This document shows positions 21,012 through 61,914 of a stretch of DNA of 64,000 bases, piece after piece. The position numbers and the translations under genes were made by a program. Every line of letters begins with the position of its first letter. The first letter of the stretch is position 1. The notes beneath the pieces were generated by a model that was not told where the DNA came from, made no database searches, and saw only the letters and a program-made list of their open reading frames with translations. Location: the NCBI GenBank assembly GCA_007378955.1, contig VMGY01000003.1, positions 26,264 through 90,263 on the forward strand, read 5' to 3'. This stretch comes from Parcubacteria group bacterium Athens0714_12. GTDB lineage: Bacteria > Patescibacteriota > Patescibacteriia > UBA2591 > VMGY01.

Positions 21012-21034
21012 AAAATTAAATAAAAATTACAATT

Positions 21035-21270
21035 ATCAAACCCCAAATCACAAACAAATACCAAATTCTAATGACCAAAATTCAAAACTGTTTGGAATTT
21101 ACCTGCCCGACTTCGCCTTGACTGATTTTATCCTCTAAATTTTTTAAATTATTATAATTAGCGAAAACTATCAATCCTGTTTATTAGAAACGGCGAAGTC
21201 AAGGCGGGCGGGTAATTTGGGATTTTGAATTTGTTTGATATTTGTAATTTGAAATTTGGGATTTAAAATT
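21035..21270. repeat. about 235-bp inverted-repeat element: AT-rich AAATTCAAA/CCAAAT arms with a GC-rich core hairpin (cccgacttcgccttgac / gtcaaggcgggcggg)
   Basis: Arms 21040-21100 and 21211-21270 are reverse complements; core arms at 21098-21124 and 21191-21216. Confidence 0.5.
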
Positions 21271-21291
21271 TTATTAAATTAATTTAGTCGT

Positions 21292-26099: not shown

Positions 26100-26370
26100 G
26101 ATAAAAAAATGTCTAATTCCTAATTTCTAATGCCAAATTAATGCTCAATGCCAAAATGTCCAATCTTTAATTAATCTTATTCGGTTATTGGTCATTTAAT
26201 CGTTAAGATTTTTTATTAGAAATTAGAAATTTGACATTAGGTATTAAATAACTTTGAATTACGAAATAGGCTGAGTAGGGGGCGCGCTCATATCTTTTTT
26301 GCAGACGCGGCGATTAGTCCGCAGCGCAAAAAAGATATGAGCCCTAAATAATGAATTTCGTAATTCAAAC
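26100..26370. repeat. AT-rich inverted-repeat element (ctaatttctaatgccaaat arms) adjoining a nested GC-rich hairpin (26252-26370)
   Basis: attcctaatttctaatgccaaatt / aattagaaatttgacattaggtat inverted; ctttgaattacgaaat..atttcgtaattcaaac outer stem; gggggcgcgctcatatcttttttgc..gcaaaaaagatatgagccc inner stem. Confidence 0.5.
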
Positions 26371-28531: not shown

Positions 28532-28532
28532 A

Positions 28533-28850: not shown

Positions 28851-28907
28851 ACCAAAATTATTAAAAATTTAGAACGAAGTGAATAAATTTTTTATTATAA
28901 TTTTGAG

Positions 28908-29022
28908 TATCCCCCACCTATCCTAAAGTAGGGTTCTCAAAAAAGAATAATTAGAGCGGCGAAGCGACTCCGTCTCTGAAACTTACAAAAGAATTAATCA
29001 TACTCTGGGATAGGTGGGGGAT
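28908..29022. repeat. inverted repeat atcccccacctatcc ... ggataggtgggggat enclosing a GC-rich segment
   Basis: Perfect 15-bp arms about 80 bp apart. Confidence 0.4.
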
Positions 29023-29088
29023 TAACGATTTTGTAACTAAATTTTTTTCGGTTATTATTACAACCTCAAAAATTTTAGACAAAATCAG

Positions 29089-29646
29089 TTATTCCCATTT
29101 AATTTCATTTACTTTCCAATCTCCATTTTCTTTCAAAAAGGTTATTTTTGCTTCTTGATAATATATCTTGTTATCCGAAGGGCTGTCTGAACTTTCCTGC
29201 CTTTGGCAATTTACTTTAATGAGCGCTTGATTTGAATTAAAACTTTCTATTTCACTATTTAAAAATTTCGCGGAAAATTTTTCATAAGGCTGTTCAGCGC
29301 TTTGTTTTCGCAAGGCTTGTTTTATAAAATCATCAGCCCATTTTCGCATCGCCTGAGTCATAAACGGCTTCAAATCAATAATATTTTCGTAATTATTTTG
29401 ATTGGAATAATTGCCATAACTTTCGGCAAAGAAAGAAGCCAAGCTTTGCAATTCTAATTTAAGCTTTGTTTCTTCATCCGCGATTGGAATAATAACTTCT
29501 TCTGCTATTTTATTTTCCGCCTCTTGATTGATATTATTTGATTCTTTTTCCGCCGGCGCTAAATTATTTTTATAAATAAAAAAACCGCCAATTAAAAATA
29601 TAATTATTAGTAAAACGACAAATAAAATTTTTAGATTAGTGGGCAT
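29089..29646 (-). CDS. membrane-anchored hypothetical protein (185 aa)
   Basis: N-terminal TM; no family recognised. Confidence 0.45.
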   Translation of the reverse strand: MPTNLKILFVVLLIIIFLIGGFFIYKNNLAPAEKESNNINQEAENKIAEEVIIPIADEETKLKLELQSLASFFAESYGNYSNQNNYENIIDLKPFMTQAMRKWADDFIKQALRKQSAEQPYEKFSAKFLNSEIESFNSNQALIKVNCQRQESSDSPSDNKIYYQEAKITFLKENGDWKVNEIKWE

Positions 29647-29702
29647 AATTAATAAAATTTCTAATATCTAATATCTAAATAAAATGTCAAAATCCTAATG
29701 CC

Positions 29703-29822
29703 GAATAATATGAAGTGTCATTGCGAGCGACTGGAAGGAGCGAGGCAATCCCGAGGGGAAAGCAGTGAGCGGTGGGATTGCCGCGTCGTTCATTCCGCTT
29801 CTCTCCATTCACTCCTCGCAAT
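29703..29822. repeat. GC-rich long hairpin element, GTCATTGCGAG...GCAATCCC family
   Basis: gtcattgcgagcgac..gcaatccc / gggattgccgcg..ctcgcaatgacagcg inverted; about 60% GC in an about 30% GC context; same family as 43983-44208. Confidence 0.55.
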
Positions 29823-29883
29823 GACAGCGCGAAAGAATATCTTTTGTTATTTTGATTTTTAATAATTTATTGAAAATTGATAA

Positions 29884-31773
29884 TTATTTCTCCCGCTCCA
29901 TCTCTTCCTCAAACTCCTTTTTGGCGGCTTCTATTTCCAAAAGCTGGCGCGGGTCTGAAGTGATAAGCTGGTCTTCCGCGTAAGAAGCGACTACTTTAAT
30001 CGCCGCGTGTTTGGCGCCGGCGAAAAAAATTCCTTCTCCCACTCCGCTTTCCAAAAGCAAATATTTCTCTCCTTCGGTGAGCATAAAAGTTTTAGACACC
30101 AAATCTATCGCCGCCGGCGATTGCTTAAAAAGCAATTGCAAGGCGGAATTATTGACAATCGCGTGGCCATAATCTGAACTCAAAAAATCCTGAACATCTT
30201 GAGTAATCACCGTGATGCCTAAATAATACTTGCGGCATCTTTTAACCAAGGCGTAAATAAATTTGGCTGAATCTTCGTTTTGCATCAGCCACCAAGCTTC
30301 ATCAACAACCAGCATTCTTTTCTTCATTTCCGTTCTGACGATATTCCAAATATAATTGATTATAGTATAAATAGCGATCGGCCTCAATTCGTCCTCCAAA
30401 TCACGGACGGAAAAAACAACTAATTGATTTTTGGTTTCAATATTAGTCGGCTGATTCAATAAACCGGAAAAAGTTCCTTCGGTGTATTTTTTCAAACGCT
30501 CGGCTAAACTTTCCCCGCCTTCCATTCCCTGCAAAACTTCCAATAGGTCGCTCATAATCGGCGCTTCTATCTGTTGGGAAAGATTTGAGGAGGGGGTAAT
30601 GTCTTTTTTGGCGTAAGTTTCCAATAAAGCTCTATCCAATAACGAATCTTCTTCTGGAGTAAAATGCAAAACGCCTTTTTCGTCCGGCACGCCAATCATT
30701 AATTTTAATAATCCTTTTAAGGTGATAACAGCTGTTCTGATAATATCTTCTGTTTTAAAATCTTTGGAAAGCGGCTTGGGCAAATCAAAAGGATTGATTT
30801 TGCTTTCCGAGGCCAAAGAAATATTTATATAACTTCCGCCCACCGCGTCGCAAAGGTGCTTATATTCTCTTTCCGGGTCAATGATAATCATCTCAACGCC
30901 AAACATCATACTCCTTAAAACTTCTAATTTTACGAAATAACTTTTTCCCGCGCCCGACACGGCGAAGACAGTCATATTCGCGTTCTCCAAAGAAAAACGG
31001 TCAAATAAAATCAAACTATTATTATGGCGGTTAACGCCGTAAAGAATGCCGTTATCGCTGGTGACGTCAGCTGAAACAAATGGAAATGAAGAGGCGCAAG
31101 GCGAAGTGTTCATATTAAAAGCAATCATCAGCTCGTCATTAGCCAAGGGCAAAGTGGAATTAAATCCTTGCTCTGACTGATAAAAACTTCTTCGCGAATA
31201 TATTAATTTTGAGCCCAGCAAAGATTCCACTTTTTCAGAAAGCAAATCCAATTCTTTTTGAGAATCAGCGTAAATAGTGATATATAAACTGAATTGAAAA
31301 AATTGTTCAATGCCCTGGGTCAAATCATCTCTTAATTTTTCCATATCCCTTAAAGCGGTTTCTTTTATCGGGTCTCGGGGAGCGCCTTTCTCCACCCCCG
31401 CGGAAATTTCCGCCTCTAATATTCCCACTCTATTTCTTAATTGCTTTAAAATAATTTCTGATTTAACTTTATAAAAATACATCGCGATATCCAAAGGGGC
31501 GGTTAAATTAATGATTGGCGTAAACCAGCCCACATTAATATAGCGGGGATAATTAATGACAAAAAGAGTGCGGATGAATTTATTATTCAATTCCAAATTA
31601 TAAGGATTGATACGCATGGAAGCGGGAGCAATTAAATCACGGACAGAAAATATTCCGGCGCGATAAGCCTCTTCGGACCTTATTAATTCTTTTTCCTCTT
31701 CAATAGTAAGTTTAATTTTTTCTTTATTATCCTTTTCCTTTTCTTCTATTTTTATTTTATTCGCTTTGAACAT
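29884..31773 (-). CDS. VirB4/TrbE-family type IV secretion ATPase (ATPase domain)
   Basis: Walker A VSGAGKSYFVK, Walker B VVDEAWWLM, VirB4-like length and C-terminal organisation. Confidence 0.75.
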   Translation of the reverse strand: MFKANKIKIEEKEKDNKEKIKLTIEEEKELIRSEEAYRAGIFSVRDLIAPASMRINPYNLELNNKFIRTLFVINYPRYINVGWFTPIINLTAPLDIAMYFYKVKSEIILKQLRNRVGILEAEISAGVEKGAPRDPIKETALRDMEKLRDDLTQGIEQFFQFSLYITIYADSQKELDLLSEKVESLLGSKLIYSRRSFYQSEQGFNSTLPLANDELMIAFNMNTSPCASSFPFVSADVTSDNGILYGVNRHNNSLILFDRFSLENANMTVFAVSGAGKSYFVKLEVLRSMMFGVEMIIIDPEREYKHLCDAVGGSYINISLASESKINPFDLPKPLSKDFKTEDIIRTAVITLKGLLKLMIGVPDEKGVLHFTPEEDSLLDRALLETYAKKDITPSSNLSQQIEAPIMSDLLEVLQGMEGGESLAERLKKYTEGTFSGLLNQPTNIETKNQLVVFSVRDLEDELRPIAIYTIINYIWNIVRTEMKKRMLVVDEAWWLMQNEDSAKFIYALVKRCRKYYLGITVITQDVQDFLSSDYGHAIVNNSALQLLFKQSPAAIDLVSKTFMLTEGEKYLLLESGVGEGIFFAGAKHAAIKVVASYAEDQLITSDPRQLLEIEAAKKEFEEEMEREK

Positions 31774-31786
31774 AAAATAATTTAAT

Positions 31787-32464
31787 TTATTGGTCTATCC
31801 TTAATTTTTCTAAACTTTCTAATTTTTCCTGCTCGGCAATTTCCGGATTATAAGTTTTATAAAATAATTCTATCAAACTTTGCGTATCCAAGGGAACTGA
31901 TTTCAATCCCATACTCGCCAATCCGCTCATAATCGTATCCGCTCTTTTGAATAATTCCAATTTATATTTTTCAAATAAAGTCCTTTTTAATTTTATGATC
32001 ATCACCGCGGAAAGAGTTTCTTGCAATCTGATAAAAAAATTCTTTGCTCCACCGGAAAATGGCGAATAAGAGACAGCCACATAAAAATATTTGCTCATAA
32101 TCTCGCCCATCTCCACTAATTCCTGAATATAGCTGATATATTCCGCGGTCTGCATTTTCAACAAATCATTTTCCTGATTTTCTTCAACTTCTTTTAATTT
32201 CTCTATGTAAGAAGAAATATTCAGTTTCCTTGATTGAACAATGATTTGCACTGAAAATTCCAAACTATTTAAAAAATTAACATATCCTTGAATAATCGCT
32301 TTTTGCTCTTCTTCGCTTTTTAAAGCAAAGTTAATTGAAGAAACTAATAGGATTGTTCTTAAACTGCCGTCTTTTAAAACCACGCAATCGTCTTTTATTT
32401 CCGCGATATCCAAATATTTTTGCGTGGAAGGCAAACTCTTTTTTTTAATTATATTTTCTGGCAT
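31787..32464 (-). CDS. putative VirB4 N-terminal domain encoded as a separate ORF
   Basis: LDIAEIKDDCVVLKDGSLRTILLVSS..SEEEQ resembles the VirB4 N-terminal start; ends 13 nt before the ATPase ORF start. Confidence 0.45.
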   Translation of the reverse strand: MPENIIKKKSLPSTQKYLDIAEIKDDCVVLKDGSLRTILLVSSINFALKSEEEQKAIIQGYVNFLNSLEFSVQIIVQSRKLNISSYIEKLKEVEENQENDLLKMQTAEYISYIQELVEMGEIMSKYFYVAVSYSPFSGGAKNFFIRLQETLSAVMIIKLKRTLFEKYKLELFKRADTIMSGLASMGLKSVPLDTQSLIELFYKTYNPEIAEQEKLESLEKLRIDQ

Positions 32465-32486
32465 AAATATTTTATTAAATTTTTAA

Positions 32487-32912
32487 TTACTCTTCCCGGT
32501 ACGCTCCGCCGGTGTCAACAATCAATGATAATTCCGAAAGCTTGGAGCTAATTAATTTTTTTCTGATTAATTCCGCTGGAATATCTTCTTTTATTGATAA
32601 TTTTATTTCTTCCTTCTCTTTTTCTTTTATTGTTTCTTTCCCCCAGATTCGCAAGGCTGGCTTTCTAAAAACCGATTGGATAAAATTCAAAAGAAAATAA
32701 TGGAACATTTGCCCGCCCGGCTTAAACCAGCCGAATAAATAAACAAAAAAGATAACCATCAGGCCTTCGGTGACAAATAAAGAAAAATCAGCCAGCTTAT
32801 AACTAATAACCAAAATTATTCCGCCCGCTAACATAATAATAAATTGCCGGGCGGTAATGGGCCCGATAATTTTTGGCTCGATTTCAATAAATTGCGGGAC
32901 TAAAAACTGCAT
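32487..32912 (-). CDS. VirB3-like small membrane protein
   Basis: 141 aa, two TM helices, immediately upstream of the VirB4-like genes. Confidence 0.45.
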   Translation of the reverse strand: MQFLVPQFIEIEPKIIGPITARQFIIMLAGGIILVISYKLADFSLFVTEGLMVIFFVYLFGWFKPGGQMFHYFLLNFIQSVFRKPALRIWGKETIKEKEKEEIKLSIKEDIPAELIRKKLISSKLSELSLIVDTGGAYREE

Positions 32913-32915
32913 AAT

Positions 32916-34265
32916 TTAAAATCTTAAAGATTTGTTTAAATCCACTAGGGCGATGATTTCTTCCTCGGTTAAAGCAATTTTTCCCTGCTCAATCCTTTCT
33001 TTTATTACTTCTTTGGTTTCTTTGTTTTTTTCTATGCTTTCTCTGCCTATTTCTAAATATATTCTATAAACCTCGCTTTGCCGCCAATTCCTGATGCCCT
33101 GAATCTTCTTGGAAAATGATTCCTTTTCTAAAAGGTCAATCTTTTGCTTAATTTTCAAAGCGGCTCCTTGCGCCTCATCAGCCAATTCCCTAAAATCTTT
33201 CAATTTAAAATATCTTAATTCCTCCAAAGGCCCTATTACTTTCGGGGGCGGCGCTTTTATATCTTCCATCAATGTTTTATTTGTTTCTATTTTCGGCTTC
33301 CATTCTGTGTTAATAATTTTTTCCTGTTGTTTATCAATTTCTTTTTTCCCAATTTTTGGCTCGGTTATTATTTTAGGAATCTTTGGTTCTATCAAAACCG
33401 GCGCAACTGATTTGGCGGGTTCAGCAATTTCAACGGGCTTATTTTCCTTTAAGTCAGAAAAGGAAATTTTTTCCTCATTTTTAATTTCCGGTTTCAAGGC
33501 GGGCAAGTTAGAATTTTCTATCGCTTCAGCGGCTTCGTAAATTTTAACTTCTAAATCTTTCGTAATAGGAAATTTTATGGGTTTAACCGGCTTAGAAATC
33601 TCAAATTTGGGCAAGGGCGCGTCTTTTTTAAATTTCTCGCCGAATTTTTTAAATTCTTCTTTAAAAATCTTTGCTGTTCTTTCCGCTTCGCTCTCGCTTA
33701 ATTCCAAGCCGCCGATTTTTTTGGATTTCATTAAAATTTCTTTGGTCTCTATCTCGTCCCTGATGTCCCTTAAGTGAAGGGCAATAATGCTTTTTAGCCG
33801 CTTGCTCAAAATTTCGTCGGCAAAAGGCAAATTGACTTTTCCCGCGATTTCCTCCGCCAATTTTTCTACGCTTAAAGGCTTGATTTTTCCCGCCTTTTCT
33901 CTTATTTTTTCTAATTCCTCGTCCTCCAAAGCTCCAGCAGGAACGAAGGAGGATTTTTTTTCTTCCGAAGGAATATCGGAAAAAGAAAATTTTTCCAAAT
34001 CATCCATAATAGGATTGAAAACCTTTTTTAAAACCTCTTTGATATTTTCTATATCCTCTTTCTTTTCAAGATGATAATATTCTCTTAAAAAATTTTCCGA
34101 CTCTTTTATCTTTATAGTTTTAGTGGCGATAAAAATAACCATTCTTAATAAATCAATATTATATTTTTTTTCAGCTTTTTCCAAAAATTCTAAAACTTCC
34201 GGCTTTTCAATCCTCTCTTTTATTTTCTTTGGCGCTCTTTGAAATTTTTCTAAAATTTCTATCAT
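32916..34265 (-). CDS. soluble Lys/Glu-rich hypothetical protein (449 aa) in the T4SS-like cluster
   Basis: No TM; low complexity; no family recognised. Confidence 0.45.
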   Translation of the reverse strand: MIEILEKFQRAPKKIKERIEKPEVLEFLEKAEKKYNIDLLRMVIFIATKTIKIKESENFLREYYHLEKKEDIENIKEVLKKVFNPIMDDLEKFSFSDIPSEEKKSSFVPAGALEDEELEKIREKAGKIKPLSVEKLAEEIAGKVNLPFADEILSKRLKSIIALHLRDIRDEIETKEILMKSKKIGGLELSESEAERTAKIFKEEFKKFGEKFKKDAPLPKFEISKPVKPIKFPITKDLEVKIYEAAEAIENSNLPALKPEIKNEEKISFSDLKENKPVEIAEPAKSVAPVLIEPKIPKIITEPKIGKKEIDKQQEKIINTEWKPKIETNKTLMEDIKAPPPKVIGPLEELRYFKLKDFRELADEAQGAALKIKQKIDLLEKESFSKKIQGIRNWRQSEVYRIYLEIGRESIEKNKETKEVIKERIEQGKIALTEEEIIALVDLNKSLRF

Positions 34266-34273
34266 AATTTTAT

Positions 34274-36367
34274 TTAAGCGCTTGTCTTAAAATCATTAGC
34301 CCGCTTTTCCAATTCTTTTAAATATTTATTTAATTCTATTTCAACAACCGAACTAAGCGGCTTGCCATTGATATCTTTTTTGCTTCTTAATGAATTTTTT
34401 ATTTTCTCAATTTCTGAAGCTGCCGCTGATTCGTTAAGCTTGCTCGGGTCTAAAAATGAATAATTTTCTCCTTGTGTCTTGTTGGCAGTTTTGGCAGGCC
34501 GTGTCAAAGTTGCTATTTTTTTGTTAGCCTTATTTCTAAGATCAGTCTTATATTTAGCTTGATTGGCTACTTTTTCTAATTGCCCCATAATTTGTTCTTT
34601 TGTTTTTTCAGGCATTCTAAAAAACTGTTTTTCGTCAAGCCCGAGATAAAAACGGGCTTCTTCTTCGTATTTATCGGCATTATTCATGCCCGCGATTGCT
34701 TTGCCCATATCCGCCCCGGCTATTTTCCCGGCGGCTGTTTCCGCTTTTTCCAACGCCTCTTCTCTTTCGCTCTTCTCTCCCGGCGTTTCAGGGATTTCTT
34801 TTTTCGCGCGATATTTCTTATTTTCCCATTTCGGAGCAATAACACTGACTGCTTTATTATAATCGCTCGCTCCGCTAGTCAACTTAGCCAAAACACTATA
34901 TGCTGTTTGTTGATCTTTCCCTGCTAATCCTGTTCCTTCTTTTAGCAAATTCAATTCTTCCATTCCTAATTTTTTCTCTTTATTTAATTGTCTTCCAAAA
35001 GTTTCCGCTGTTACCCAATCTCTCTTTTTAACAGCCTGCTTAAAATTATCTTTAATTTCGTCTACATCTCTAAATAATCCCTCTTCTTCGCATTCCTTTG
35101 ACCTTCTATTTACTGATTTTTCATAAGCGCCAGACACGCCTTGGCGCATCATTGCCGCTTCTTCCTTTTCTTTTGTCATTGCCGTTCTGCCTTGCGCTGT
35201 TAAAAATCTTAATCCTTTTGTTTCGCTCAATTTTTCGCCAATGGCCTTGCCTGGGGCGCCCCAGCCCAAAGCTTTAGGCGCTTCCTGCGCTGTTTTTCTC
35301 AACCATTTCATTGGCGAATAACCGCTCTTGCCGCTGGCCCAGCCGACAATCGCGCCAGATGCTCTGCCGCCTAATTTGGTGGCAACGCCCAAAGATGTTA
35401 TCAGTATCGTAATGGCGAAAGCGTAATTCAAAATATTTTTTGATTCGCTAAGCTCGCTCAAAGTCGTAGTGATTACTCCTTCTTCATTGACTCCTTTAAC
35501 GCCAAAATCTCCGGCGATATCGCTCTGGAGAATTAGCAAAGAAAACCATAAAAAGAAAGCCAAAATAGGGCCGATAATAACCCAATTAGTGAACTGTTTC
35601 CACCACTGGGAAACATACCCGGAAAACGCCGGCACTAAATTTCCCATCCAAATAATCGGGGAAAGGACGACTAAAAGCCAAAGCATTACAACGCGAATTA
35701 ATAAAATTAGAAAAAACGCTAAAAGGACCACAAAACTGATAATAACAAAAATCAGATTCAAAATCATTGTGCCGGCTATGCTAAAATTGGCTAAACTCAA
35801 ACCATTGTCCTTGCTTATATTCCACATCGTGGAAAGGCCGGTCGCGTTAATCAAAACTCCAGCGGCGCTGTCTTTAAAAGCATTGACAAAAGTAATCATC
35901 ACTATTTGACCGGCGTCAATCAATAAGCCGCAAATCATTTTGCTGAAATTAATCATCACCGCGGCAATAACCAATTTGCCTAATAATCGCCTGTAATTCC
36001 AAGCTTCCTGTCCTAAAACCGTGCCAAAAGCCATCAATAAAAGAACAATAATAAAAAACATATTGCAAATATCCCTGACTATCAGCCAAGCGGTAGTGAC
36101 CGAAGGCACATTTATAAACTTATTAAATTGGGCGACTTGAAGTAAAAGATAAATAATACCCAAAGAAAGACTTCCCAAAGCCCAAGCCGGAATCCATAAA
36201 ATCCAACTGATCATTAAAAAAATCGCATTATAAAGCTCCGCGCCAACTTCTTTGATAACATTGTCTCCTGCCGCCAAAACCGGATTTTGCCAAAAAGAAA
36301 AAATTAAAATAGAAAATAGTACTATTAAAATTACATTGGCGATTAAATTTCTTTTGTTTCTTTTCAT
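34274..36367 (-). CDS. VirB6/TrbL-like polytopic membrane protein with long C-terminal soluble extension
   Basis: Signal-anchor plus at least 6 TM helices over the first about 330 aa, then a charged domain. Confidence 0.45.
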   Translation of the reverse strand: MKRNKRNLIANVILIVLFSILIFSFWQNPVLAAGDNVIKEVGAELYNAIFLMISWILWIPAWALGSLSLGIIYLLLQVAQFNKFINVPSVTTAWLIVRDICNMFFIIVLLLMAFGTVLGQEAWNYRRLLGKLVIAAVMINFSKMICGLLIDAGQIVMITFVNAFKDSAAGVLINATGLSTMWNISKDNGLSLANFSIAGTMILNLIFVIISFVVLLAFFLILLIRVVMLWLLVVLSPIIWMGNLVPAFSGYVSQWWKQFTNWVIIGPILAFFLWFSLLILQSDIAGDFGVKGVNEEGVITTTLSELSESKNILNYAFAITILITSLGVATKLGGRASGAIVGWASGKSGYSPMKWLRKTAQEAPKALGWGAPGKAIGEKLSETKGLRFLTAQGRTAMTKEKEEAAMMRQGVSGAYEKSVNRRSKECEEEGLFRDVDEIKDNFKQAVKKRDWVTAETFGRQLNKEKKLGMEELNLLKEGTGLAGKDQQTAYSVLAKLTSGASDYNKAVSVIAPKWENKKYRAKKEIPETPGEKSEREEALEKAETAAGKIAGADMGKAIAGMNNADKYEEEARFYLGLDEKQFFRMPEKTKEQIMGQLEKVANQAKYKTDLRNKANKKIATLTRPAKTANKTQGENYSFLDPSKLNESAAASEIEKIKNSLRSKKDINGKPLSSVVEIELNKYLKELEKRANDFKTSA

Positions 36368-36441
36368 ATGAAGTTATGAAATTCCAAATCTCAAATCACA
36401 AATTTCAAACAAATTCAAAATCCCAAATTCTAAATTCCAAA
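36368..36441. repeat. AT-rich inverted-repeat arm (aaattccaaatctcaaatcacaaatttcaaacaaattcaaaatcccaaatt), partner at 36805-36856
   Basis: Reverse complement of 36805-36850 agaatttgtgatttgtttggaatttggtgcttgaaatttggaattt. Confidence 0.55.
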
Positions 36442-36804
36442 CTACTTACTATTAGTCAAAATAGAATTAAAAATTTTAATAAATTCTGAGGCTTCTTGAA
36501 TTAAAAATTTACCTTCGTTGTTGCTACTTAAATTATTAGTATCAATAATTAATCTAAGCCAATAGCGACTTTCTTTTGATTCTTTCCTGGAAATTTTTAT
36601 TCTCATCATAAAGTCTTTTTTACTTAATGATTCATTCGCTTCAATATAGTTTGCCCCAACTGAACCACTGGCTCGAACTACTTGTCTAATTAACTCAATG
36701 TTTTCTACTGTTCTTACTAATTTTTTGCAAAATTCTATTACTCGTTTAGTAAAATTAAAAGTTCTTTCTTCTAAATCGTAATTTTGGTTTTGTATTTTGG
36801 TCAT
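36442..36804 (-). CDS. four-helix-bundle protein ('23S rRNA intervening-sequence protein' family)
   Basis: VRASGSVGANYIEANESLSKKDF..RISRKESKESRYWLRL matches the family signature (GANY.EA....S.KDF...S..E..E..YWL). Confidence 0.75.
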   Translation of the reverse strand: MTKIQNQNYDLEERTFNFTKRVIEFCKKLVRTVENIELIRQVVRASGSVGANYIEANESLSKKDFMMRIKISRKESKESRYWLRLIIDTNNLSSNNEGKFLIQEASEFIKIFNSILTNSK

Positions 36805-36856
36805 TAGAATTTGTGATTTGTTTGGAATTTGGTGCTTGAAATTTGGAATTTAATCT
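36805..36856. repeat. AT-rich inverted-repeat arm, partner of 36368-36441
   Basis: See 36368-36441. Confidence 0.55.
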
Positions 36857-39800
36857 TTACGGTATCACCACTATCCGCCCGTCAAACATTTGACCGCCGC
36901 AACCGGCTTGATAGCCGCCGTTATTGCACCAACCCCAATTATCTTGAATCTGAATTGCCGGCCTAAAAACGCAACAGCCGCCATTAGTAATCCCTAAAAC
37001 AGGGCAAACAGCCTGCCAGCCGGCTCCGCCAATCTCGCACCTATAACTATGATAATAATTGAAATAACCTTCTAAACAAGCTTCTGGGGTATGCCCAAAA
37101 TCCCGGCTGTCGCATTCTCCTATTGCCAAATGATTTTTATAAAATCCCGGGAAAGGCCCACTCGCGCTTCCGTCGCCCCAATTAATAATTATATTTCTAA
37201 TGGGCATTTGGTCTTTGTCTACCAAGCTGAAAAATTTAAGACTTGTCCTTATTCTGCCCCTCGCCAAAATATCCCCGCTGTTCTGATTATTGATCGTCAT
37301 TCTATAATTCGCGTCTTGATAGCATTTTCCGCTTGACGGGTCGCAATCCAAAACGCCAACGCTTCTTATTTTTAAAGCCGATATTTGAGGCGCTCTGGAA
37401 GCATTGCTGGCGGTAAAAGTCACATCCCAAACATCGCTATTATTTACAGGCACGTATCCATTGCCAATATTATATTGATAAATTTGGTAAGACCGGGCAA
37501 AAATATCATGTAAACTTGATTTATTATTTTGATAATCATTATCCCCGATATAAAACATTTCCTGCTGAGAGCATTTTGGAAAATTCTCGTGGTCAATAAA
37601 AATAGTTTCTCTGTCCACCGCCCGATTAGGCAAAGCGGCAAAAAGAGGAGAGCAAGTACTGCTATAATTATAGCCAAGAGAATTAGTAAAATTACTTGTC
37701 TGCCAAACCCTGTCAGTCCAAGCTTTATTTTCCGCCCCTTGGGTAACTCCCGCTATTTCAGCGCATCTTTCGCCAGTACTTAAAATATTGCAATCTCCTT
37801 GGCTTAAATTAGGAATTATGGTTAAAGTGGCGGAAATATAACAGCCATTGCCGCCAATAACTTCGCAATCCCATTCGCATCTGTCATGCAAGCCTCTCCG
37901 ATATGTGCGGGTATTTCTCTCCACAAAGCCAAAGGGACAGCCATCGCATTCCCCCGAATCTTCATGATAACTTGCTCTCCAATCATAATTAAGTTCTTCT
38001 TTCTCCAAGCAATAAAACGGACCCTCGCCCAAACCTAATCCTCCGGCATTAAACCCGGCTTCCACATATTGATTATATAAATCAGAAGCGCCGACAATCA
38101 AATCAATAGGCATCCAGGTCAAACAGGCGAATTGGTCGCTTTTGCCATTGATGGTTTTACTCTTGTCTCTTTCCAAGCAATAGCCCTCCCAGCCGATATA
38201 ATTAACTTTTTTCTTAACTGGCGCGCAATGGCCATCTCCATCTCGGCAATCTTGAACTGTCACTTCTTGCCCGCAGAATTTTCCGTCTTCTTCTCCCCCC
38301 TGGCAAATAGAATCAGGAATAGTTAAATTATTTCCGGCAAAATATTTTTCTTCGCCACTGCCGTAAGACACTTTTTGATAATGACAATCGCAAGCCTCTA
38401 CTTCGCCATCGCCCGCGTCTTGGCAATAATTCGCGTTGGCAAATTCCGTGATTACTCTGGTGTTATTAGAAAAAGGGCTTTCTTTTTGAGGATACCCGCG
38501 GCAGGAAGAAGATAGCGCGCCGCCATTAGGCAAATTTCCATCTATGCCCGCCACGCACCGCTGGCTGTAGCAAAGCCCGTTTCTCCCTCCGATGTTGCAA
38601 GCCGAACCATTGGCGCTTCCCGACGGGCAATCGCCCAAAATATAAACTAATTTATTTTCCGGATTATCCAAACTGCCAAAATTAATTGAACTTAATAAAT
38701 GAATTTGATATTTATCAAACAAGGAATATCCTGAAAAATCCAAAGCTTCCCATTGACCTGTGTTCAAAGAAGCATAAACATCTTGAGTCAGAGGCTGAAG
38801 CAAATTAGGGTCATTTACTTCATTACTGCAACTAAATCCCCGCCCAAAACCTAATGACTGGTCGCAAAGAATCAAACCGCCGTCTTCGCAAACTTCTTTA
38901 TACTTGCCGATGCGGGAATCAAAAACCATATGCGTATTTTCGCAAGTAAGCCATTGCCCGCATTCTCTGTCTCTGAGCACTTTTAAAAGATTATCTTCGC
39001 CTTCTCTCGCTTGGCCATTGAAATTAATTCCCATTTTTTCTAATTTAACGCAACTATCTTTCCAATCTTCCTTAGAACAAAAAGAGAGTTTGTTATTATC
39101 CATGTAATAATAAGTTTCTCCTGTTAAATTTTCCGTATTTTCCTGATATGGCCTGAATTGCGTGCAGCCGCTGTATTTTGAAGGGCATAAGCCGGCCCAG
39201 CCAATATCAGGGTATCTATCTTCATCAATGTCACAATTTAAATTATTTACTTTAGTGAACCAGCCGGAAGTAATGACTCCGTTCAGATTAATATTTTCTT
39301 TAAACTCGCAAACTCTTTCGCCCGGGTCTTTAAAATAAGCCGTTGCTCCATTTGCTTCATATGCTTCGCATTTATCCTCGCTATTTTGGCAAAGTATCGG
39401 ACTGATTATTTTTTCCGGAGTAGAAATATATTGGTCGGGATTATTTTTTAAATAAACTGTTTGCCAAATTTGCCCATTGCTTGAATCTAATTTTAAATTC
39501 CCATTTGCGTCCAAACTCGGAAGGCCGAATACCCTGCAACCTTTATCATCGCTATGGCAATAATTCTTGGAATTAACCACGACATAAACCAAAGCATCGC
39601 TTTGTACGGTGACATCATCTATATTATCTCCTCCCTGATTAAAGCTTTCTTCATAAGGAGAAGATGAATTTCGGGTGTCTATTAAAAGTTCACAGCCTGC
39701 TTTGTCTTCTTCGCAAAGGCGGGAAAATGATTTTAAATAATATCTATTTCCTTTTTTATCTTTATATTCCTCGCAATTAATTTGCGCTTTTGTGATTGGC

Positions 39801-42800
39801 TGGTCGCAGACTGCTGGCGTATCCGCGGAATTTTTTATCAAATAAAGGCTGTCGAAAATTTCTTTCAAAATAATATTATCTAAGTAAAAAACTCCTTGTC
39901 CGTTAATCACGATGCTTTCTCCGCCATTTTCTTCCGCGTCAAAAGAAATCGGGCCTACGGTGTATGAATTCCATTCGTTAGAAATTAAGTTTACTCTGCC
40001 GAATTCCAAACTTAAATCAGGCCTTCGCAATTCGCTCAAAAGCTGGCCTTCTCCTTTTGCCCAAAAACTCAAAACATAACTTCTGCCTGGCAACGGCGAA
40101 ATTGATTTTGAAACCGCGCCGTTTACCCTTAAAGAATGCCCGCTGATATTTACCGATTCATTGCTGTTAACTCCTCCTTGCCAGCTCTGATTAGTTAAAT
40201 CTTCAAAATCATTTTTAAATAAAACGCGATAATTATTGGCGGACGCGCCTTTATATTCTCTGCAGCCCGCGCTCTGCCGGGAACATTTAACGCCTTGGCT
40301 GGGAATAGCCATATAAATACAATTATTATTCTGCCAAGTCCCGCCAGTCGCGTCGCAATCCTGCAAATTAGAATCTGTTTTTCTCAAAGGATGGCAATCA
40401 TCAGAACAGGTGATAGTTTTAGAATAAGAACGATAAAAAATTTCTCCATTGGTATTATAAAATTCCCGGCAATCAGGGTTGGTTAAAATTTTCTGACTGC
40501 AACTATTTGGGTCGTCAGAAACTAAATTAGGGTCGCAGCAACTGCCGGAATTATCAACAGTGGCAGGGACGCCCCCAGCCACTGACTCTAAATTATAAAC
40601 TTCCAATTGATATCCGGTTTGTTCGGAGCCGACCCAAGTATAAAAATTAGCGCAACTTAAATTCGGCTTCTGACATTGCCTTAAATACGTATAATATTCT
40701 TTGCCTTCGCCGCCTTGAGCCACCACATCCAAATTCGTAAATTCTTCGCAACCCGCATTCTGCGCTGAACATTTCTTCGCGTTTTTAGCGATTAAAGCCG
40801 TAAGGTCATTTCCTGTATCAAAAAAAGTGGGTGATTGCTTATAATAACGATAACCGACGCATTCCGCGGGGCATTTATTATAATCCATAATTACGCCCGG
40901 AATATCCGGCTCTCCCTGCCTTGAAACCGGAGTATAAAGCCGGCAGCCTAAATCATTCGCGTTGCAATAAGTCCGATTGCCATTAAGATAAATTTTTTCC
41001 ACCTCGGCATAATTTTCATATATATCATTTTCATCCGCATCAGCTTGCACAATATTAAAAACATCCGCCAAACTTCTATTTTCCGTAATCTTGCTTAAAT
41101 ATAAAAATTCTTCACAGCCTGATTCTTTCTCGTCGCATTTTTTAGCATTTTTATTTAAATAAATCCTGTCATTAACGTTCCATTGTTCATTAAGCATAGA
41201 CTGGCTGTACCATTTGCATCCGGCATTGTCGGCATCACAGCCATTTCTTTCCAAAGTATTGGTTAAATAGGAAAAAACCTTTCCGTCTTCCCGCCTGTAA
41301 GTTGAACAAGTGTCAAAATAAAAAGGGCATTCATCACCGCCTAAACGCCAAACATTTTTTTCTCTTAAGCAATATCCCCAGCCGCCCCGGCAATTACCAT
41401 TTTTGTCTTCACTGATGCAACTGGGCGTGTCCACGCAGACATCCTGCCTCCTATTGCTTTCATTGGATTCTAAAAATGTTCCTGAAACAAGGGACTTGCA
41501 TTGCGTAAGCGGCGCTTTTAAAAGCCACTCGGGGTCAATAAGATGAAAATATTTAGAATCAGGATTATCAAAATTATCCATCATTTGCTTTAAAGTCGCT
41601 TCTCCTTTGGAAATAGAGGCTGCTATTTCCCACCCTAAAGGTAAAATTCTAACTTTTCTTAATTTGACCAAATTACTATGGCAATAAGCGTATGTATAAC
41701 AATAAGCGTCTTGATTTTTAGCAATCTCTTCAGGAGAAATCAAAAGCCAATCGCCCTTGATGTATCCTTGCTCTATCGCTTCTCTGACGGTTAATTTTTC
41801 TCTTATCGCGTGAGCGAAATTTTCATCAATCGCGCAATTATCAATTGAGGCAAAACGAGTATCCTCCGGGCAAGAAACAAATTTGCTTAAAGGATTGTAT
41901 TCGCCGCCGGAACGGATATCAGGCACCGCCAAAGAAGAAAAGACATTTCGGGCTTTAGTGATGCCGCCCGCGCTTAAACCGCTTCCGAATCTGTTATAAT
42001 CTTCATCATCGCCTAAATCCATTAAACTCCAAAATCCTTTTTTCATTCTGTCCGTCAAGCGCGCCGTTAAAGTATTGGTAAAAATTGAAATTGTGTCCGC
42101 CCAAATTTCTCCGGTAAATGTTTTTTCCGGGGCATCCGCGCCTTTGATAGAATTTTTAACTTGTTCTTGGCTAAGGTCGGCCGGAGTTTCTATTTGTTCG
42201 GAAATAGGAGAGGTCACGTCTTTAACCCAATTACCAGCTCTCTTTAATTCAGCGTTAGTTTGAGCTTTTTGTTGGACGCTTAACATTTGACTGGATAAAG
42301 TTAAATAAGTTCCTATGTCATTTTGAGTTGGTTCAAAGCTAACCGCGAATCTTCTTAAAAAATTAGGGTCTTTCAAGGCTTTCTGCCAATTATTTCTCAT
42401 TTCTTTCCAGGTGCATTTTACTTCTCTCGGTTTTATTTCTTCACCCAATCCCAATTGAATTTTTAATTTAGCGGAAATATCTGAAGGTTCGCAGATGTTT
42501 ATATTCCATTGGCTGACGCAAACATCAGATATTTGCTTGTAAAGCCCTTCATCCGTTTTAGGGCAAGGACTTATTTCCGCTCCATTTATATCACTCAACC
42601 ATCTGCAATCAGCGGGGTCATTTGGATTATTGCACTGGCAATGAGTGCCAATAGGAGAACAAAAATTATTTTTGCCGCATCGCGCGGTTGAATTTCCCTT
42701 GCAATAGCCCGAACCGCTACTGACTAAAGTTTCCAGAAAATCTCCCGCCGCCGCGTCAGCCGCGTCTTCCAAATAAGTCTTCCAATTCTTAGTAAATAAA

Positions 42801-43147
42801 AGCGGTTTTTGGCCTTTATCTCCGCTGCCAATCCAGACCGCCGTGTCATAAGCGATTTTAGTGGTAAAAGTTTTTAAAGCGTTTTTAAAAGCAATCGCCG
42901 CCACCTTGTTATAAAGAAACTCCCCTGCTTTTTCTATTCTTTCCCATACCCATTTTGACATATTCATAACTGTTTGAATTGGATCTGTAACTACCCATTG
43001 AGCATTTGCTGGCTTTGGATAAAACAAAACAGGAATAATAACTTGCAAAATAAAAAATATCAAAACCACGCTGGCGATAACTTTTGTCTTGCCAGAATGT
43101 TTTGATGATTTGTTTTTGGGATTAAATTTCTGTTCCCGCCAAACCAT
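36857..43147 (-). CDS. giant (2096 aa) secreted cysteine-rich protein with a concanavalin/LamG-like lectin domain; putative surface adhesin of the T4SS-like locus
   Basis: N-terminal signal-anchor; more than 150 Cys in CxxC/CxC/CC-rich modules; central jelly-roll-like segment (about aa 975-1100) ending in YLDNIILKE. Confidence 0.65.
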   Translation of the reverse strand: MVWREQKFNPKNKSSKHSGKTKVIASVVLIFFILQVIIPVLFYPKPANAQWVVTDPIQTVMNMSKWVWERIEKAGEFLYNKVAAIAFKNALKTFTTKIAYDTAVWIGSGDKGQKPLLFTKNWKTYLEDAADAAAGDFLETLVSSGSGYCKGNSTARCGKNNFCSPIGTHCQCNNPNDPADCRWLSDINGAEISPCPKTDEGLYKQISDVCVSQWNINICEPSDISAKLKIQLGLGEEIKPREVKCTWKEMRNNWQKALKDPNFLRRFAVSFEPTQNDIGTYLTLSSQMLSVQQKAQTNAELKRAGNWVKDVTSPISEQIETPADLSQEQVKNSIKGADAPEKTFTGEIWADTISIFTNTLTARLTDRMKKGFWSLMDLGDDEDYNRFGSGLSAGGITKARNVFSSLAVPDIRSGGEYNPLSKFVSCPEDTRFASIDNCAIDENFAHAIREKLTVREAIEQGYIKGDWLLISPEEIAKNQDAYCYTYAYCHSNLVKLRKVRILPLGWEIAASISKGEATLKQMMDNFDNPDSKYFHLIDPEWLLKAPLTQCKSLVSGTFLESNESNRRQDVCVDTPSCISEDKNGNCRGGWGYCLREKNVWRLGGDECPFYFDTCSTYRREDGKVFSYLTNTLERNGCDADNAGCKWYSQSMLNEQWNVNDRIYLNKNAKKCDEKESGCEEFLYLSKITENRSLADVFNIVQADADENDIYENYAEVEKIYLNGNRTYCNANDLGCRLYTPVSRQGEPDIPGVIMDYNKCPAECVGYRYYKQSPTFFDTGNDLTALIAKNAKKCSAQNAGCEEFTNLDVVAQGGEGKEYYTYLRQCQKPNLSCANFYTWVGSEQTGYQLEVYNLESVAGGVPATVDNSGSCCDPNLVSDDPNSCSQKILTNPDCREFYNTNGEIFYRSYSKTITCSDDCHPLRKTDSNLQDCDATGGTWQNNNCIYMAIPSQGVKCSRQSAGCREYKGASANNYRVLFKNDFEDLTNQSWQGGVNSNESVNISGHSLRVNGAVSKSISPLPGRSYVLSFWAKGEGQLLSELRRPDLSLEFGRVNLISNEWNSYTVGPISFDAEENGGESIVINGQGVFYLDNIILKEIFDSLYLIKNSADTPAVCDQPITKAQINCEEYKDKKGNRYYLKSFSRLCEEDKAGCELLIDTRNSSSPYEESFNQGGDNIDDVTVQSDALVYVVVNSKNYCHSDDKGCRVFGLPSLDANGNLKLDSSNGQIWQTVYLKNNPDQYISTPEKIISPILCQNSEDKCEAYEANGATAYFKDPGERVCEFKENINLNGVITSGWFTKVNNLNCDIDEDRYPDIGWAGLCPSKYSGCTQFRPYQENTENLTGETYYYMDNNKLSFCSKEDWKDSCVKLEKMGINFNGQAREGEDNLLKVLRDRECGQWLTCENTHMVFDSRIGKYKEVCEDGGLILCDQSLGFGRGFSCSNEVNDPNLLQPLTQDVYASLNTGQWEALDFSGYSLFDKYQIHLLSSINFGSLDNPENKLVYILGDCPSGSANGSACNIGGRNGLCYSQRCVAGIDGNLPNGGALSSSCRGYPQKESPFSNNTRVITEFANANYCQDAGDGEVEACDCHYQKVSYGSGEEKYFAGNNLTIPDSICQGGEEDGKFCGQEVTVQDCRDGDGHCAPVKKKVNYIGWEGYCLERDKSKTINGKSDQFACLTWMPIDLIVGASDLYNQYVEAGFNAGGLGLGEGPFYCLEKEELNYDWRASYHEDSGECDGCPFGFVERNTRTYRRGLHDRCEWDCEVIGGNGCYISATLTIIPNLSQGDCNILSTGERCAEIAGVTQGAENKAWTDRVWQTSNFTNSLGYNYSSTCSPLFAALPNRAVDRETIFIDHENFPKCSQQEMFYIGDNDYQNNKSSLHDIFARSYQIYQYNIGNGYVPVNNSDVWDVTFTASNASRAPQISALKIRSVGVLDCDPSSGKCYQDANYRMTINNQNSGDILARGRIRTSLKFFSLVDKDQMPIRNIIINWGDGSASGPFPGFYKNHLAIGECDSRDFGHTPEACLEGYFNYYHSYRCEIGGAGWQAVCPVLGITNGGCCVFRPAIQIQDNWGWCNNGGYQAGCGGQMFDGRIVVIP

Positions 43148-54123: not shown

Positions 54124-55660
<1,537 letters not shown>

Positions 55661-59870: not shown

Positions 59871-59980
59871 AAATTAAAAAATTCTAAATCCAATATCAAA
59901 ATTCGAAATTTAAAATCAAATTATTTTTATATTTTAACATTTAAAAAATATATAAACAAGAAGAGAGAGTTATTCTCTCT

Positions 59981-61603: not shown

Positions 61604-61914
61604 ACGCTAAATTTATTTCATAAATTTTAAAATCCTAAATCCTAATTTCTAAATCCTAAACAAATTTTAAACTTCGCCGGTAGGTTTTTGCATTCCCATA
61701 GGATACATTTTATTATTTTTAATCATAAAAATTAAATCATTAAATATCTTACTTTTTAATATAGTCTATTTTAAATTTTAAAGCAAGTAAATTCTCTGTC
61801 CCCAGACTTTCCCCAGCTTATGCACAAAATAATTTTACTTAGTGTGTTTGTAGTATTTCTTATCTGTGTTATAATCTTTATTACATCCATATCTCTATTC
61901 CCTAATTTACTTTT
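61604..61914. promoter_or_regulatory. candidate replication origin / dnaA promoter region
   Basis: AT-rich divergent intergenic region between rpmF (-) and dnaA (+); DnaA-box-like TTATGCACA (61818-61826) and TTATCTGTG; tandem aaatcctaaat repeats at 61630-61665. Confidence 0.35.

Follow-up and report, generated by a model that had tools for sequence, protein, structure and literature searches.

Why does a gene of the protein family named after 23S rRNA intervening sequences (IVSs) lie, framed by inverted repeats, between two protein-coding genes of a Parcubacteria group bacterium? IVSs in rRNA have puzzled researchers since 1990; to our knowledge, neither their origin nor the function of their open reading frames (ORFs) has been explained. 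The window analyzed here, a stretch of 64,000 nucleotides from Parcubacteria group bacterium Athens0714_12, contains a 23S rRNA gene (4210-8365) and a 16S rRNA gene (54125-55666). The gene in question (36442..36804, minus strand) instead occupies the spacer between two codirectional ORFs encoding proteins of 2096 and 697 amino acids and is not inserted into an rRNA gene helix. An earlier note on this DNA had placed it in a T4SS-like island; island status found no support, since the syntenic cluster is also present in relatives and has housekeeping genes on its flanks. The same note had correctly observed that the 23S IVS of the window carries an ORF outside the family (7852-8067, without a Pfam or NCBIfam match) and had seen a paradox in the family name. 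The paradox disappears with the anatomy of the cassette formed by the gene and its repeats, which is that of a classical 23S IVS.

The 120-amino-acid product was assigned to PF05635 (E value of 1e-16; 61.5 bits against a cutoff of 33.8) and to TIGR02436 (E value of 3e-22; 78.8 bits against a threshold of 24), and its sequence matched PDB entry 2RLD (E value of 1e-12). The AF2 model (pLDDT of 93.5) comprised a disordered segment (residues 1 to 8) and four helices (residues 11-27, 33-57, 62-89, and 96-118). Foldseek aligned this model with 2RLD (TM score of 0.77-0.85) and 2GSC (0.74-0.82), identifying it as a four-helix bundle. The 2RLD structure has five chains, and a homopentameric toroid is cited for the S23p homolog Xcc0516 in the Coxiella study (PMC4990558). 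Scans with Pfam, NCBIfam, PADLOC, and PHROGs returned nothing beyond this family and no catalytic domain, and no transposase, HUH domain, or other catalytic domain was found beside the gene. At 0.04-0.15, the dN/dS ratio shows strong purifying selection on the cassette protein.

Avd, a pentameric nucleic-acid-binding four-helix bundle (PMC10053308), has this fold as well (4DWL and 8UB7; TM score of 0.6-0.79) and belongs to the same Pfam family. The cassette protein could thus be the DGR accessory protein Avd or have another retroelement-linked function, with the arms acting as RNA elements for reverse transcription. However, the identity to Avd amounted to 12-14% over the structural alignment, and the 78 other loci with homologs lie in ordinary metabolic operons. 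No template/variable repeat pair was seen near the cassette, the repeats found being the heptamer arms only. This reading is very improbable, and it was rejected because a scan of 20 ORFs in the 19.5- to 48.7-kb interval detected no reverse transcriptase.

In the sense of the gene, the cassette consists of a 5′ arm (36805..36851, minus strand), the gene, and a 3′ arm (36379..36441, minus strand). The arms are period-7 arrays of about four to five units, built from degenerate heptamers (AAATNCN) and an AAACAAA anchor. The 5′ arm starts 5 nt past the TAA (36857-36859) of the upstream 2096-amino-acid gene and reads AAATTCC, AAATTTC, AAGCACC, AAATTCC, and AAACAAA, followed by 12 nt and the ATG. 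As in the Coxiella type of leader, tandem heptamers, here four and the anchor, are located directly ahead of the gene (-47 to -13 relative to its start), and this arm is G poor and devoid of a Shine-Dalgarno motif. After the gene stop, the 3′ arm reads TTTGGAATTTAGAATTTGGGATTTTGAATTTGTTT and then GAAATTT, GTGATTT, GAGATTT, and GGAATTT; 11 nt separate its end from the ATG (36365-36367) of the downstream 697-amino-acid gene. Self-identity at a lag of 7 nt peaked at 0.50 and 0.51 in the two flanks, compared to 0.30 within the gene. An arm profile trained solely on arms from other phyla found both the 5′ arm (36856-36787; E value of 2e-9) and the 3′ arm (36373-36442; E value of 1e-7). The 3′-arm profile matched the cassette at 36411-36442 and 36378-36412 and gave no match with an E value of ≤0.01 on 20 shuffled windows.

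Together, the arms form an inverted repeat of 66 nt (36376-36441 and 36789-36854) with 73% complementarity, and stem pairing overall amounted to 73-78%. The inverted-repeat score at this locus (L001 of our locus set) was 30 (z = 15.6 versus shuffled flanks), and the bracketing of the four-helix-bundle gene proposed in the earlier note was thereby borne out. The terminal repeats fold into a long stem around the ORF, as in an IVS; it was present in both the minimum free energy (MFE) and the centroid folds (z = -3.3) and includes the first ~5 to 8 codons of the gene with the start codon. Arm complementarity is maintained via compensatory changes: the observed level of covariation was matched in 0 of 500 shuffles and collapsed in slid registers, with an ascertainment bias in that the alignment was chosen for complementarity. 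The pairs at heptamer position 7 were C-G (11), U-A (8), and G-C (6), and 2 positions were unpaired. Mismatches of the sense-strand G-U type were barely more common (195) than those of the antisense A-C type (161), without a clear asymmetry. The mismatches thus carry no strand-specific RNA signature, and pairing in single-stranded DNA is equally possible. Among distant members the heptamer sequences differ or are unrelated, yet the period of 7 is conserved. Such an exact period is more than pairing needs and points to a further constraint on the arms, for example, protein binding or a copying mechanism.

The earlier note had listed five further occurrences of the arm motif in the window, often with a GC hairpin core. 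Scans for G-free or C-free runs and a strict lag-7 scan proved too noisy or too strict and were replaced by blastn and profile searches. These confirmed the element at 21 kb (21024-21271, plus strand), whose sequence identifies it as a genuine gene-less derivative. Its 5′ arm (21024..21091) showed 81% identity to that of the cassette over 47 nt (E value of 1e-8; arm profile, 2e-6) and retains ATGACCAAAATTCAAAAC, corresponding to the first six codons of the four-helix-bundle gene. Its 3′ arm (21214..21271) was 92% identical to the cassette counterpart over 51 nt (E value of 4e-15; profiles, 6e-4 and 1e-3). The gene is replaced by an unrelated core of ~110 nt (21102..21213) with a G+C-rich inverted repeat (ACCTGCCCGACTTCGCCTTGAC ... 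GTCAAGGCGGGCGGGT), of which no second copy was detected in the window or the fetched loci. The fold of the whole element reached -70 kcal/mol (z = -5.7). A GC core was seen at this site and at none of the others. The element runs opposite to the cassette and to its own flanking genes, lspA and comM; both gene-less copies in the window are antisense to the adjacent genes. A solo 3′-type arm at 61629..61669 (TTTGTTTAGGATTTAGAAATTAGGATTTAGGATTT on the minus strand; profile E values of 2e-5 and 5e-6) was also confirmed. No partner arm was found for it, and a small minus-strand ORF lies directly downstream, which by eye we take to be rpmF-like.

The remaining occurrences were less convincing, two or three of the five being nonsignificant. 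A weak two-armed hairpin of the same style at 26108..26254 (plus strand; CTAATTC... and ...GAAATTAGAAATT) was of marginal relatedness, with profile E values of 0.016 for the arm at 26108-26163 and 2.5 for its partner and a blastn E value of 1e-5 to a cassette arm. The match at 59879-59908 was marginal (E value of 0.17), and that at 29644-29704 was not significant (E value of >1). Heptamer stems also bracket a tRNA and stand between tRNAs in this genome. The genome has a G+C content of 36% and intergenic DNA rich in A/T runs, a background in which low-complexity spacers could resemble one another by chance without homology, and three of the noted sites were indeed nonsignificant. Against such an origin stand the z value of the inverted repeat, the foreign-phyla profile matches with E values down to 2e-9, the clean shuffled windows, and the 92% identity between arms at 21 and 36 kb. 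For the cassette, for the copy at 21 kb, and for the arm at 61.6 kb, these results refute an origin as simple low-complexity A+T sequence, which the earlier note had named as the outcome that would undo its proposal, and we regard chance resemblance as scarcely credible.

To what extent gene and arms belong together became apparent from homologous loci. An inverted repeat with a z value of at least 4 flanked the gene in 63 of 78 loci from other phyla, some of which have a G+C content of ~60%. With the arm profile, the 5′ arm belonging to the gene itself was recovered in 68 loci and the corresponding 3′ arm in 56; arm type covaried with protein similarity. The units of arms and gene stay A+T rich in genomes of 31% to 63% G+C. 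These observations support the view that gene and arms behave as a single unit, conserved in different phyla and at different G+C contents. Its leader is rich in A (47%) and poor in G (9.6%), and a Shine-Dalgarno-like core was present in 6 of 80 loci. The cassette typically occupies, in sense orientation, a short spacer that begins after the stop codon of an operon gene and ends before the ribosome-binding site of the gene that follows, with gaps of 38-60 nt upstream and 74-84 nt downstream. Both neighbors were codirectional with it in 54 loci and both antisense in none. Two-armed copies without a gene, solo arms, and truncated copies are frequent in the window and in other genomes. None of the 80 closest loci touched an rRNA gene, and no rRNA homology was detected in the 82 loci (L001-L082) compared.

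Could the unit be an ordinary, nonmobile host module, with the arms as regulatory or processing structures inside the operon and the protein as an old, widespread housekeeping factor? The strong purifying selection would fit, as would long-term retention in synteny in some clades (Pirellulales loci L007, L012, L025, and L079; WOR-3 loci L018 and L023), and the stems at tRNAs suggest a general processing role. However, the contexts are almost all different: the 149 neighboring proteins fell into 129 clusters, and arms and gene occur together in unrelated operons while remaining A+T rich over the whole range of G+C contents. The nearest proteins (81-84% identity) belong to other phyla and other contexts; a copy of 84% identity with homologous arms is located between PHO4 and PhoU. 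Several cassettes and decayed copies may share 5 kb. Moreover, orthologous operons exist without the cassette. The empty site L084 reads ...GTGATACCATAG, followed by 17 nt and ATG, at the exact cassette position of the window, and the cassette is also absent from the orthologous operons L085 and L083; the comparators for this presence/absence polymorphism are distant relatives (47-56% identity of the downstream protein). A host module is therefore improbable.

The diverse contexts, the empty sites that the earlier note had suggested looking for, and the gene-less derivatives support its view of a mobile single-gene cassette. The mechanistic part of this view fared less well. At the boundaries of 40 elements, no target-site duplication, target motif, or conserved terminal nucleotides were evident, and the repeat arrays blur the boundaries. 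Mobility is therefore argued from comparative evidence. The designation as MITE-like and nonautonomous, implying transposition by the encoded protein, was not supported, since the sole ORF encodes the 120-amino-acid PF05635 protein and no transposase. The cassette resembles MITEs and REPIN/RAYT systems in that short inverted-repeat elements populate spacers, a gene-carrying form has the same repeats, and gene-less doublets, internal-deletion derivatives, and nested insertions are numerous. It differs in lacking a transposase or RAYT and an evident target-site duplication, in its fuzzy repeat arrays as termini, and in the absolute sense bias of full copies. An integron cassette would have an attC on one side only and an integrase; neither was seen in the sequence or the scanned ORFs.

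These similarities would also suit a DNA-level hairpin transposon, in which the heptamer arms fold in single-stranded DNA and are moved by a nuclease or transposase, comparable to REPIN/RAYT or IS200/IS605-derived palindromes. The four-helix-bundle pentamer would serve as a specificity or accessory factor or the enzyme would act in trans, and the gene-less copies would be nonautonomous. Apart from the inverted repeats and nearby doublets, the strand-symmetrical mismatch spectrum, the occurrence of gene-less copies in either orientation, the very diverse insertion contexts, and near-identical cassettes across phyla (L067 and L069, from different phyla, with 93% nucleotide identity) agree with such an element, as does the homology to Avd as a nucleic-acid-binding partner of a polymerase. 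It is opposed by the missing catalytic domain, by the boundaries without evident duplication, conserved terminal nucleotides, or target motif, and by the 54:0 ratio of sense to antisense cassettes, which points to dependence on host transcription, although selection after insertion could also explain it. On balance, we consider a DNA-level hairpin transposon unlikely. Close relatives in viral contigs and phage records were absent, and phages are thus not an evident vector.

The closest parallel is provided by 23S IVSs with an S23p ORF (Coxiella burnetii, Leptospira, and Haemophilus sp.), which share the protein family, the ORF enclosed by terminal inverted repeats, the invariable sense orientation inside a host transcription unit, and a sporadic distribution suggestive of horizontal transfer. 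In the Coxiella IVS, three to four tandem heptamers (GACAGAT) directly precede the S23p ATG, which has a poor Shine-Dalgarno sequence; the first of these repeats, located within the stem of the terminal inverted repeats, is the site of RNase III cleavage (PMC4990558). In contrast, the cassette lies between protein-coding genes rather than in helix 9, 25, or 45 of 23S rRNA, its heptamers have another sequence, and derivatives without a gene or with a solo arm occur dispersed in spacers. Purifying selection clearly acts on its protein, whereas S23p is regarded as decaying by the authors of the Coxiella study (PMC4990558). Given the common anatomy, the cassette is best seen as an IVS-kind element outside rRNA, and it is probably a hitchhiker of this type: a promoterless four-helix-bundle gene with inverted heptamer arms that serve as a processing stem.

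Such a cassette would be transcribed by read-through from the host operon. Its A-rich, G-poor leader without a Shine-Dalgarno sequence would be translated while unpaired, either cotranscriptionally or by reinitiation once ribosomes have terminated at the adjacent stop codon of the upstream gene. After synthesis of the 3′ arm, the arms would pair into an imperfect A/U-rich duplex of 45-65 bp in which the start codon is buried. By analogy to rRNA IVSs, RNase III would cut this duplex and excise the insert from the RNA, which would make the insert tolerable to the host. Movement to new sites and genomes would take place at the DNA level; as a guess, we favor recombination or gene conversion between the arm repeats. 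The gene-less hairpins may be landing pads or deletion products, and horizontal transfer would help the spread.

Period-7 arrays are also known from spacers of other bacteria. Heptamer repeats of unknown function are found in Xanthomonas (GGGAATC; 70 convergent, i.e., inverted, pairs in X. campestris) and Nostoc (GGGGA[C/T]T), and STRR heptanucleotides occur in Calothrix and other heterocystous cyanobacteria (PMC4692102). Like the cassette arms, which are STRR-like, they have a period of 7 and about four units, are intergenic and often arranged in convergent pairs, and lie transcribed inside operons (for the cassette, transcription is predicted). Unlike these arms, the Xanthomonas and Nostoc repeats are G rich and discussed as G-quadruplexes, and that literature ties no gene to them. 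A plasmid search returned distant PF05635 members only (33-38% identity; cyanobacterial and Bacteroidota), and the genes on Nostoc, Anabaena, and Euhalothece plasmids had inverted heptamer arrays of unrelated sequence on both sides, which hints at a link to the Nostoc and Xanthomonas repeats. Our literature search revealed no paper on heptamer-armed PF05635 cassettes outside rRNA and none connecting heptamer repeats to PF05635, and the family goes unmentioned in the HEPN survey. It is conceivable, if somewhat doubtful, that PF05635 genes, together with inverted arrays comprising some four to five heptamers, make up one ancient, self-contained element class across bacteria. Its pentamer ring would read five heptads in the arms of its own element, either as RNA or as hairpin DNA, to control its processing or to copy itself into gene-less hairpins. 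The rRNA IVSs, STRR, and Xanthomonas and Nostoc repeats would then be its facets or relics. Under this idea, such reading could be the reason why the period and the number of units stay constant although the sequence of the heptamers is free to drift.

As this locus and its ~80 relatives suggest, copies in rRNA are exceptional, and the unit of gene and heptamer arms resides mostly in spacers of ordinary operons. It was found in Patescibacteria, Planctomycetota, Desulfobacterota, Chloroflexota, Bacteroidota, and Cyanobacteriota. The preferred reading, an IVS-type hitchhiker, offers a concrete model in which excision at the RNA level would render the insert harmless while selection keeps the protein. 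It also suggests where the intergenic heptamer repeats, long known to be in excess, may have originated. "Mysterious" four-helix-bundle genes in cas and other operons would be passengers and not components of these systems, which bears on annotation by guilt by association.

The 489-bp spacer between two minus-strand genes, an upstream one of 2096 aa (ending at 36857) and a downstream one of 697 aa (starting at 36367), contains a single open reading frame (ORF) of 120 aa (36442-36804, minus strand) in a Patescibacteria genome with a base composition of 36% G+C. Its product matched PF05635 with 61.5 bits (cutoff, 33.8), TIGR02436 ("four helix bundle protein") with 78.8 bits (cutoff, 24) and PDB entry 2RLD with an E value of 1e-12. 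The AlphaFold model (pLDDT 93.5) displayed four helices and superposed on 2RLD and Xcc0516 (2GSC) and, more distantly, on Avd, an accessory protein of diversity-generating retroelements (DGRs). Both sequence and fold identify the protein as a PF05635/TIGR02436 member. A DGR was considered and rejected, since a scan of 20 ORFs lying from 19.5 to 48.7 kb revealed no reverse transcriptase. The dN/dS values of 0.04 to 0.15 revealed strong purifying selection on the protein, which is therefore made and matters.

The gene is bracketed by two inverted arms (36376-36441 and 36789-36854), which a repeat search recovered as 66 nt with 73% complementarity. In gene sense, the 5′ arm reads AAATTCC AAATTTC AAGCACC AAATTCC AAACAAA, followed by 12 nt and the ATG, and the 3′ arm reads, past the stop codon, ...TTTGAATTTGTTT GAAATTT GTGATTT GAGATTT GGAATTT; thus, each arm consists of four degenerate heptamers and an AAACAAA/TTTGTTT anchor. 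Since arm pairing extends into the first codons, the start codon lies within the stem, which also codes for residues 1 to 8, disordered in the protein model. The 5′ arm starts 5 nt past the stop codon of the upstream gene, and the 3′ arm ends 11 nt ahead of the ATG of the downstream gene. When the whole spacer was folded, the arms formed the terminal stem (-100.1 kcal/mol compared to -81.3 +/- 5.7 for shuffles). The inverted-repeat score of this cassette DNA (L001) reached z = 15.6 against shuffled flanks, and a profile from 40 foreign 5′ arms recovered the window arms at E values of 2e-9 and 1e-7. The cassette reported in the earlier note is real and far from chance.

More than 8000 matches to the protein (a lower bound) were obtained in a 90%-identity database, and 6657 clusters were matched at 50% identity (E <= 1e-3). 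Among the matches listed, the closest proteins showed 81 to 84% identity and included WOR-3 bacteria, and relatives at 57 to 68% identity came from Desulfobacterota, Planctomycetota, Chloroflexota, Nitrospirota, Bacteroidota, Saccharibacteria and others. We fetched 80 homologous loci; the gene could be delimited in 78 loci outside the window, 63 of which displayed a flanking inverted repeat with z >= 4. The 5′ flank of the fetched loci was nearly always (AAATYCN)x4 AAACAAAT-TCAA ATG ACC GAA AT, with its reverse complement as the 3′ flank, and this pattern was kept even in genomes of ~60% G+C. Self-identity scans showed a lag-7 peak in both flanks (0.50 and 0.51; lag 14, 0.47 to 0.48) that was absent from the coding region. 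Judged from these sequences, the arms belong with the gene and not with the source genome. At the last heptamer position, the pairs were C-G (11), U-A (8) and G-C (6), with 2 unpaired. The observed arm covariation was reached by none of 500 shuffles, and pairing fell from 78% to 48 to 53% when the register was shifted by a single column. Compensatory change maintains arm complementarity, with a recurrent mismatch bubble at the middle heptamer (typically AAGCACN versus NGATATT). Protein similarity was 65.5% within a heptamer type (ending in C, T or G) compared to 61.2% between types (permutation p < 0.001); arms and protein thus co-evolve.

The earlier description of a single-gene cassette with gene-less derivatives was right in outline. 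A true gene-less relative lies at 21024-21271, where it is flanked by lspA and a comM-like gene and runs opposite to the cassette. Its right arm (21214-21264) shares 92% identity with the cassette 3′ arm over 51 nt (E 4e-15), its left arm (21024-21070) shares 81% identity with the 5′ arm over 47 nt (E 1e-8), and both were matched by profiles. The first six gene codons, ATGACCAAAATTCAAAAC, are retained, a segment of ~110 nt containing a G+C-rich inverted repeat stands in for the gene, and the element folds strongly (z = -5.7). A second proposed recurrence, a solo 3′-type arm directly upstream of a small minus-strand ORF (61629-61669), was also significant (E 2e-5 and 5e-6), while the sites at 26108-26254 (E 0.016 and 2.5) and 59879-59908 (E 0.17) were marginal and that at 29644-29704 (E > 1) was not significant. 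Twenty shuffled windows yielded no arm profile match at E <= 0.01. G+C-rich inverted-repeat inserts nested in A+T-rich arms were observed at 21102-21213 and in a WOR-3 cassette (L090, ~2400-2450), with similar termini (ACCTGCCCG...CGGGCGGGT and CCTGCCTGCC...GGCGGGCAGG, respectively), and may constitute a separate small element targeting arms. A different nested insert occupies positions 4367-4690 of another fetched locus (L010). Within ~5-kb flanks of the loci, the arm profile detected 53 further arms, and these flanks held back-to-back gene-less hairpins and second full cassettes (L025 and L056). A 5′ fragment was fused to another gene in L079, and the arms of L010 and L090 were interrupted by the nested inserts. 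Decay products of the cassette are frequent.

Varied contexts, empty sites, the co-evolution of arms and protein, decay products and near-identical copies in different phyla all speak for movement of the unit. The 149 neighboring proteins of the loci formed 129 clusters, and their functions were ordinary (methylmalonyl-CoA mutase subunits, ABC permeases, ATP synthase epsilon, QueF). In a cassette of 84% identity the arms were homologous as well, and it separated the gene for a PHO4 phosphate transporter from that for its PhoU-like partner; two loci from Thermodesulfobacteriota (L067) and Pseudomonadota (L069) shared 93% nucleotide identity, possibly through mis-binning. The empty-site comparison proposed earlier turned up orthologous operons without the cassette: those encoding the nearest relatives (47 to 56% identity) of the 697-aa protein have no insert, and their gene order (giant protein, 697-aa homologue, ~430-aa protein, PrgI, TraC-like protein, VirB4-like ATPase) is that of the window. 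In one such contig (L084), the junction is ...GTGATACCATAG, 17 nt, ATG, compared to ...GTGATACCGTAA AGATT [cassette] CATAACTTCAT ATG in the window. The otherwise "empty" 77-nt spacer of another relative (L085, 1500-1576) contains TAATTGT x3, a heptamer array of a different type that may be what remains of another cassette at this position. The surrounding cluster (27650-43147) encodes a T4SS pilin, a VirB4/TraG-like ATPase, PrgI, the TrbL-like 697-aa protein and the Cys-rich 2096-aa giant protein. Because three related metagenomic contigs show synteny with it and the housekeeping genes leuS, ksgA, pnp and radA flank it, this "T4SS-like island" resembles a conserved trait of the lineage more than a recently acquired island. 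MITE-like transposition, also suggested earlier, is unproven, and a classical transposon is argued against by the boundaries inspected, which had neither target-site duplications nor sharp termini, and by the lack of a catalytic protein with the cassette. An IVS-type (intervening sequence) element in operon spacers provides a better frame.

In the Coxiella 23S IVS, terminal inverted repeats enclose an ORF for S23p, a PF05635-family protein; three to four GACAGAT units stand in tandem directly upstream of the ATG, and RNase III cuts at the first of these, within the stem (PMC4990558). Every structural feature of S23p-type IVSs is common to the cassette except the defining one, rRNA location, which was found neither for the cassette nor for any of the 80 closest loci. 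PF05635 genes have been noted inside cas operons (PMC3936711) and in 16S and 23S insertions of the Candidate Phyla Radiation (bioRxiv 10.1101/2024.02.27.582315), in both cases without mention of arms. No description of the extra-ribosomal, heptamer-armed form was found in the literature searched, the coverage of which was incomplete. Distant four-helix-bundle genes adjoin cas1 and cas2 in Anabaena cylindrica pANACY.01 (L094), where cas2 and cas1 flank the gene but it is on the opposite strand, and in Pseudanabaena pPg_04 (L095). These placements are more consistent with inserted passengers than with components of CRISPR systems. The window's own 23S gene (4210-8365, 4156 nt) has two insertions, of which one (5063-5545) encodes a LAGLIDADG_1 endonuclease. 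The other (7795-8133) indeed carries a different ORF, as had been noted: its inverted-repeat arms (GTAACTAATTTTGGTAGCTGATTTTGAGG / CCTCAAAATCAGTTACCAATGTTTAGTTAC) differ, and the 71-aa ORF is unrelated and without a family match.

Both neighbors were co-directional with the cassette in 54 loci and both opposite in none, and full cassettes were never antisense in the fetched loci. The gaps were stereotyped, with the arm starting at or adjoining the upstream stop and ending just ahead of the next gene's ribosome-binding site. The leader contained 47% A and 9.6% G, and a Shine-Dalgarno-like core was present in only 6 of 80 loci. These features fit a promoterless passenger that would be read through from the host operon and translated from the unstructured leader ahead of 3′ arm synthesis, after which the arms would fold into a long A/U-rich duplex. 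Because the Coxiella 23S IVS has the same anatomy, we infer that RNase III would cut this duplex. Mismatches of the G-U type (195) were hardly commoner than those of the A-C type (161); therefore, single-stranded-DNA pairing is equally compatible with the data.

A second period-7 inverted-repeat family (unit ACAACTN / NAGTTGT) was observed in the window, as a hairpin between tRNA-Phe and tRNA-Val (9982-10060; 31-nt arms, 90% complementary) and as 21-nt arms (8768-8913) bracketing tRNA-Leu (8793-8879). Heptamer stems may be a general RNA-processing device in the source genome. The same unit forms a perfect tandem, AGTTGTA x4.6 (46588-46619), inside the leuS ORF (46249-48714, minus strand), and its in-frame translation, KLTTYNLQLTTH, falls within a loop of the anticodon-binding domain. 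PF05635 members of only 33 to 38% identity, on plasmids of cyanobacteria and one Bacteroidota, were flanked by inverted tandem heptamers of unrelated sequence: TTCAAAA x4 upstream and TTTTGAA x4 downstream in Nostoc flagelliforme, AATTCGC x4 and GCGAATT x4 in Nostoc punctiforme, and CCAGTGA-type units and TCACTGG x12 in Euhalothece, with weaker inverted heptamers in Anabaena and Chondrinema. Period and copy number are therefore conserved while the sequence is free, which pairing alone fails to explain. In Xanthomonas and Nostoc, Rehm et al. (2015) reported intergenic heptamer repeats in unexplained excess, mostly of four units, often in convergent pairs and transcribed, with no gene linked to them (PMC4692102). 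The crystallized family member Xcc0516 is also from Xanthomonas. We hypothesize that these repeats are arms or relics of the element class to which the cassette belongs.
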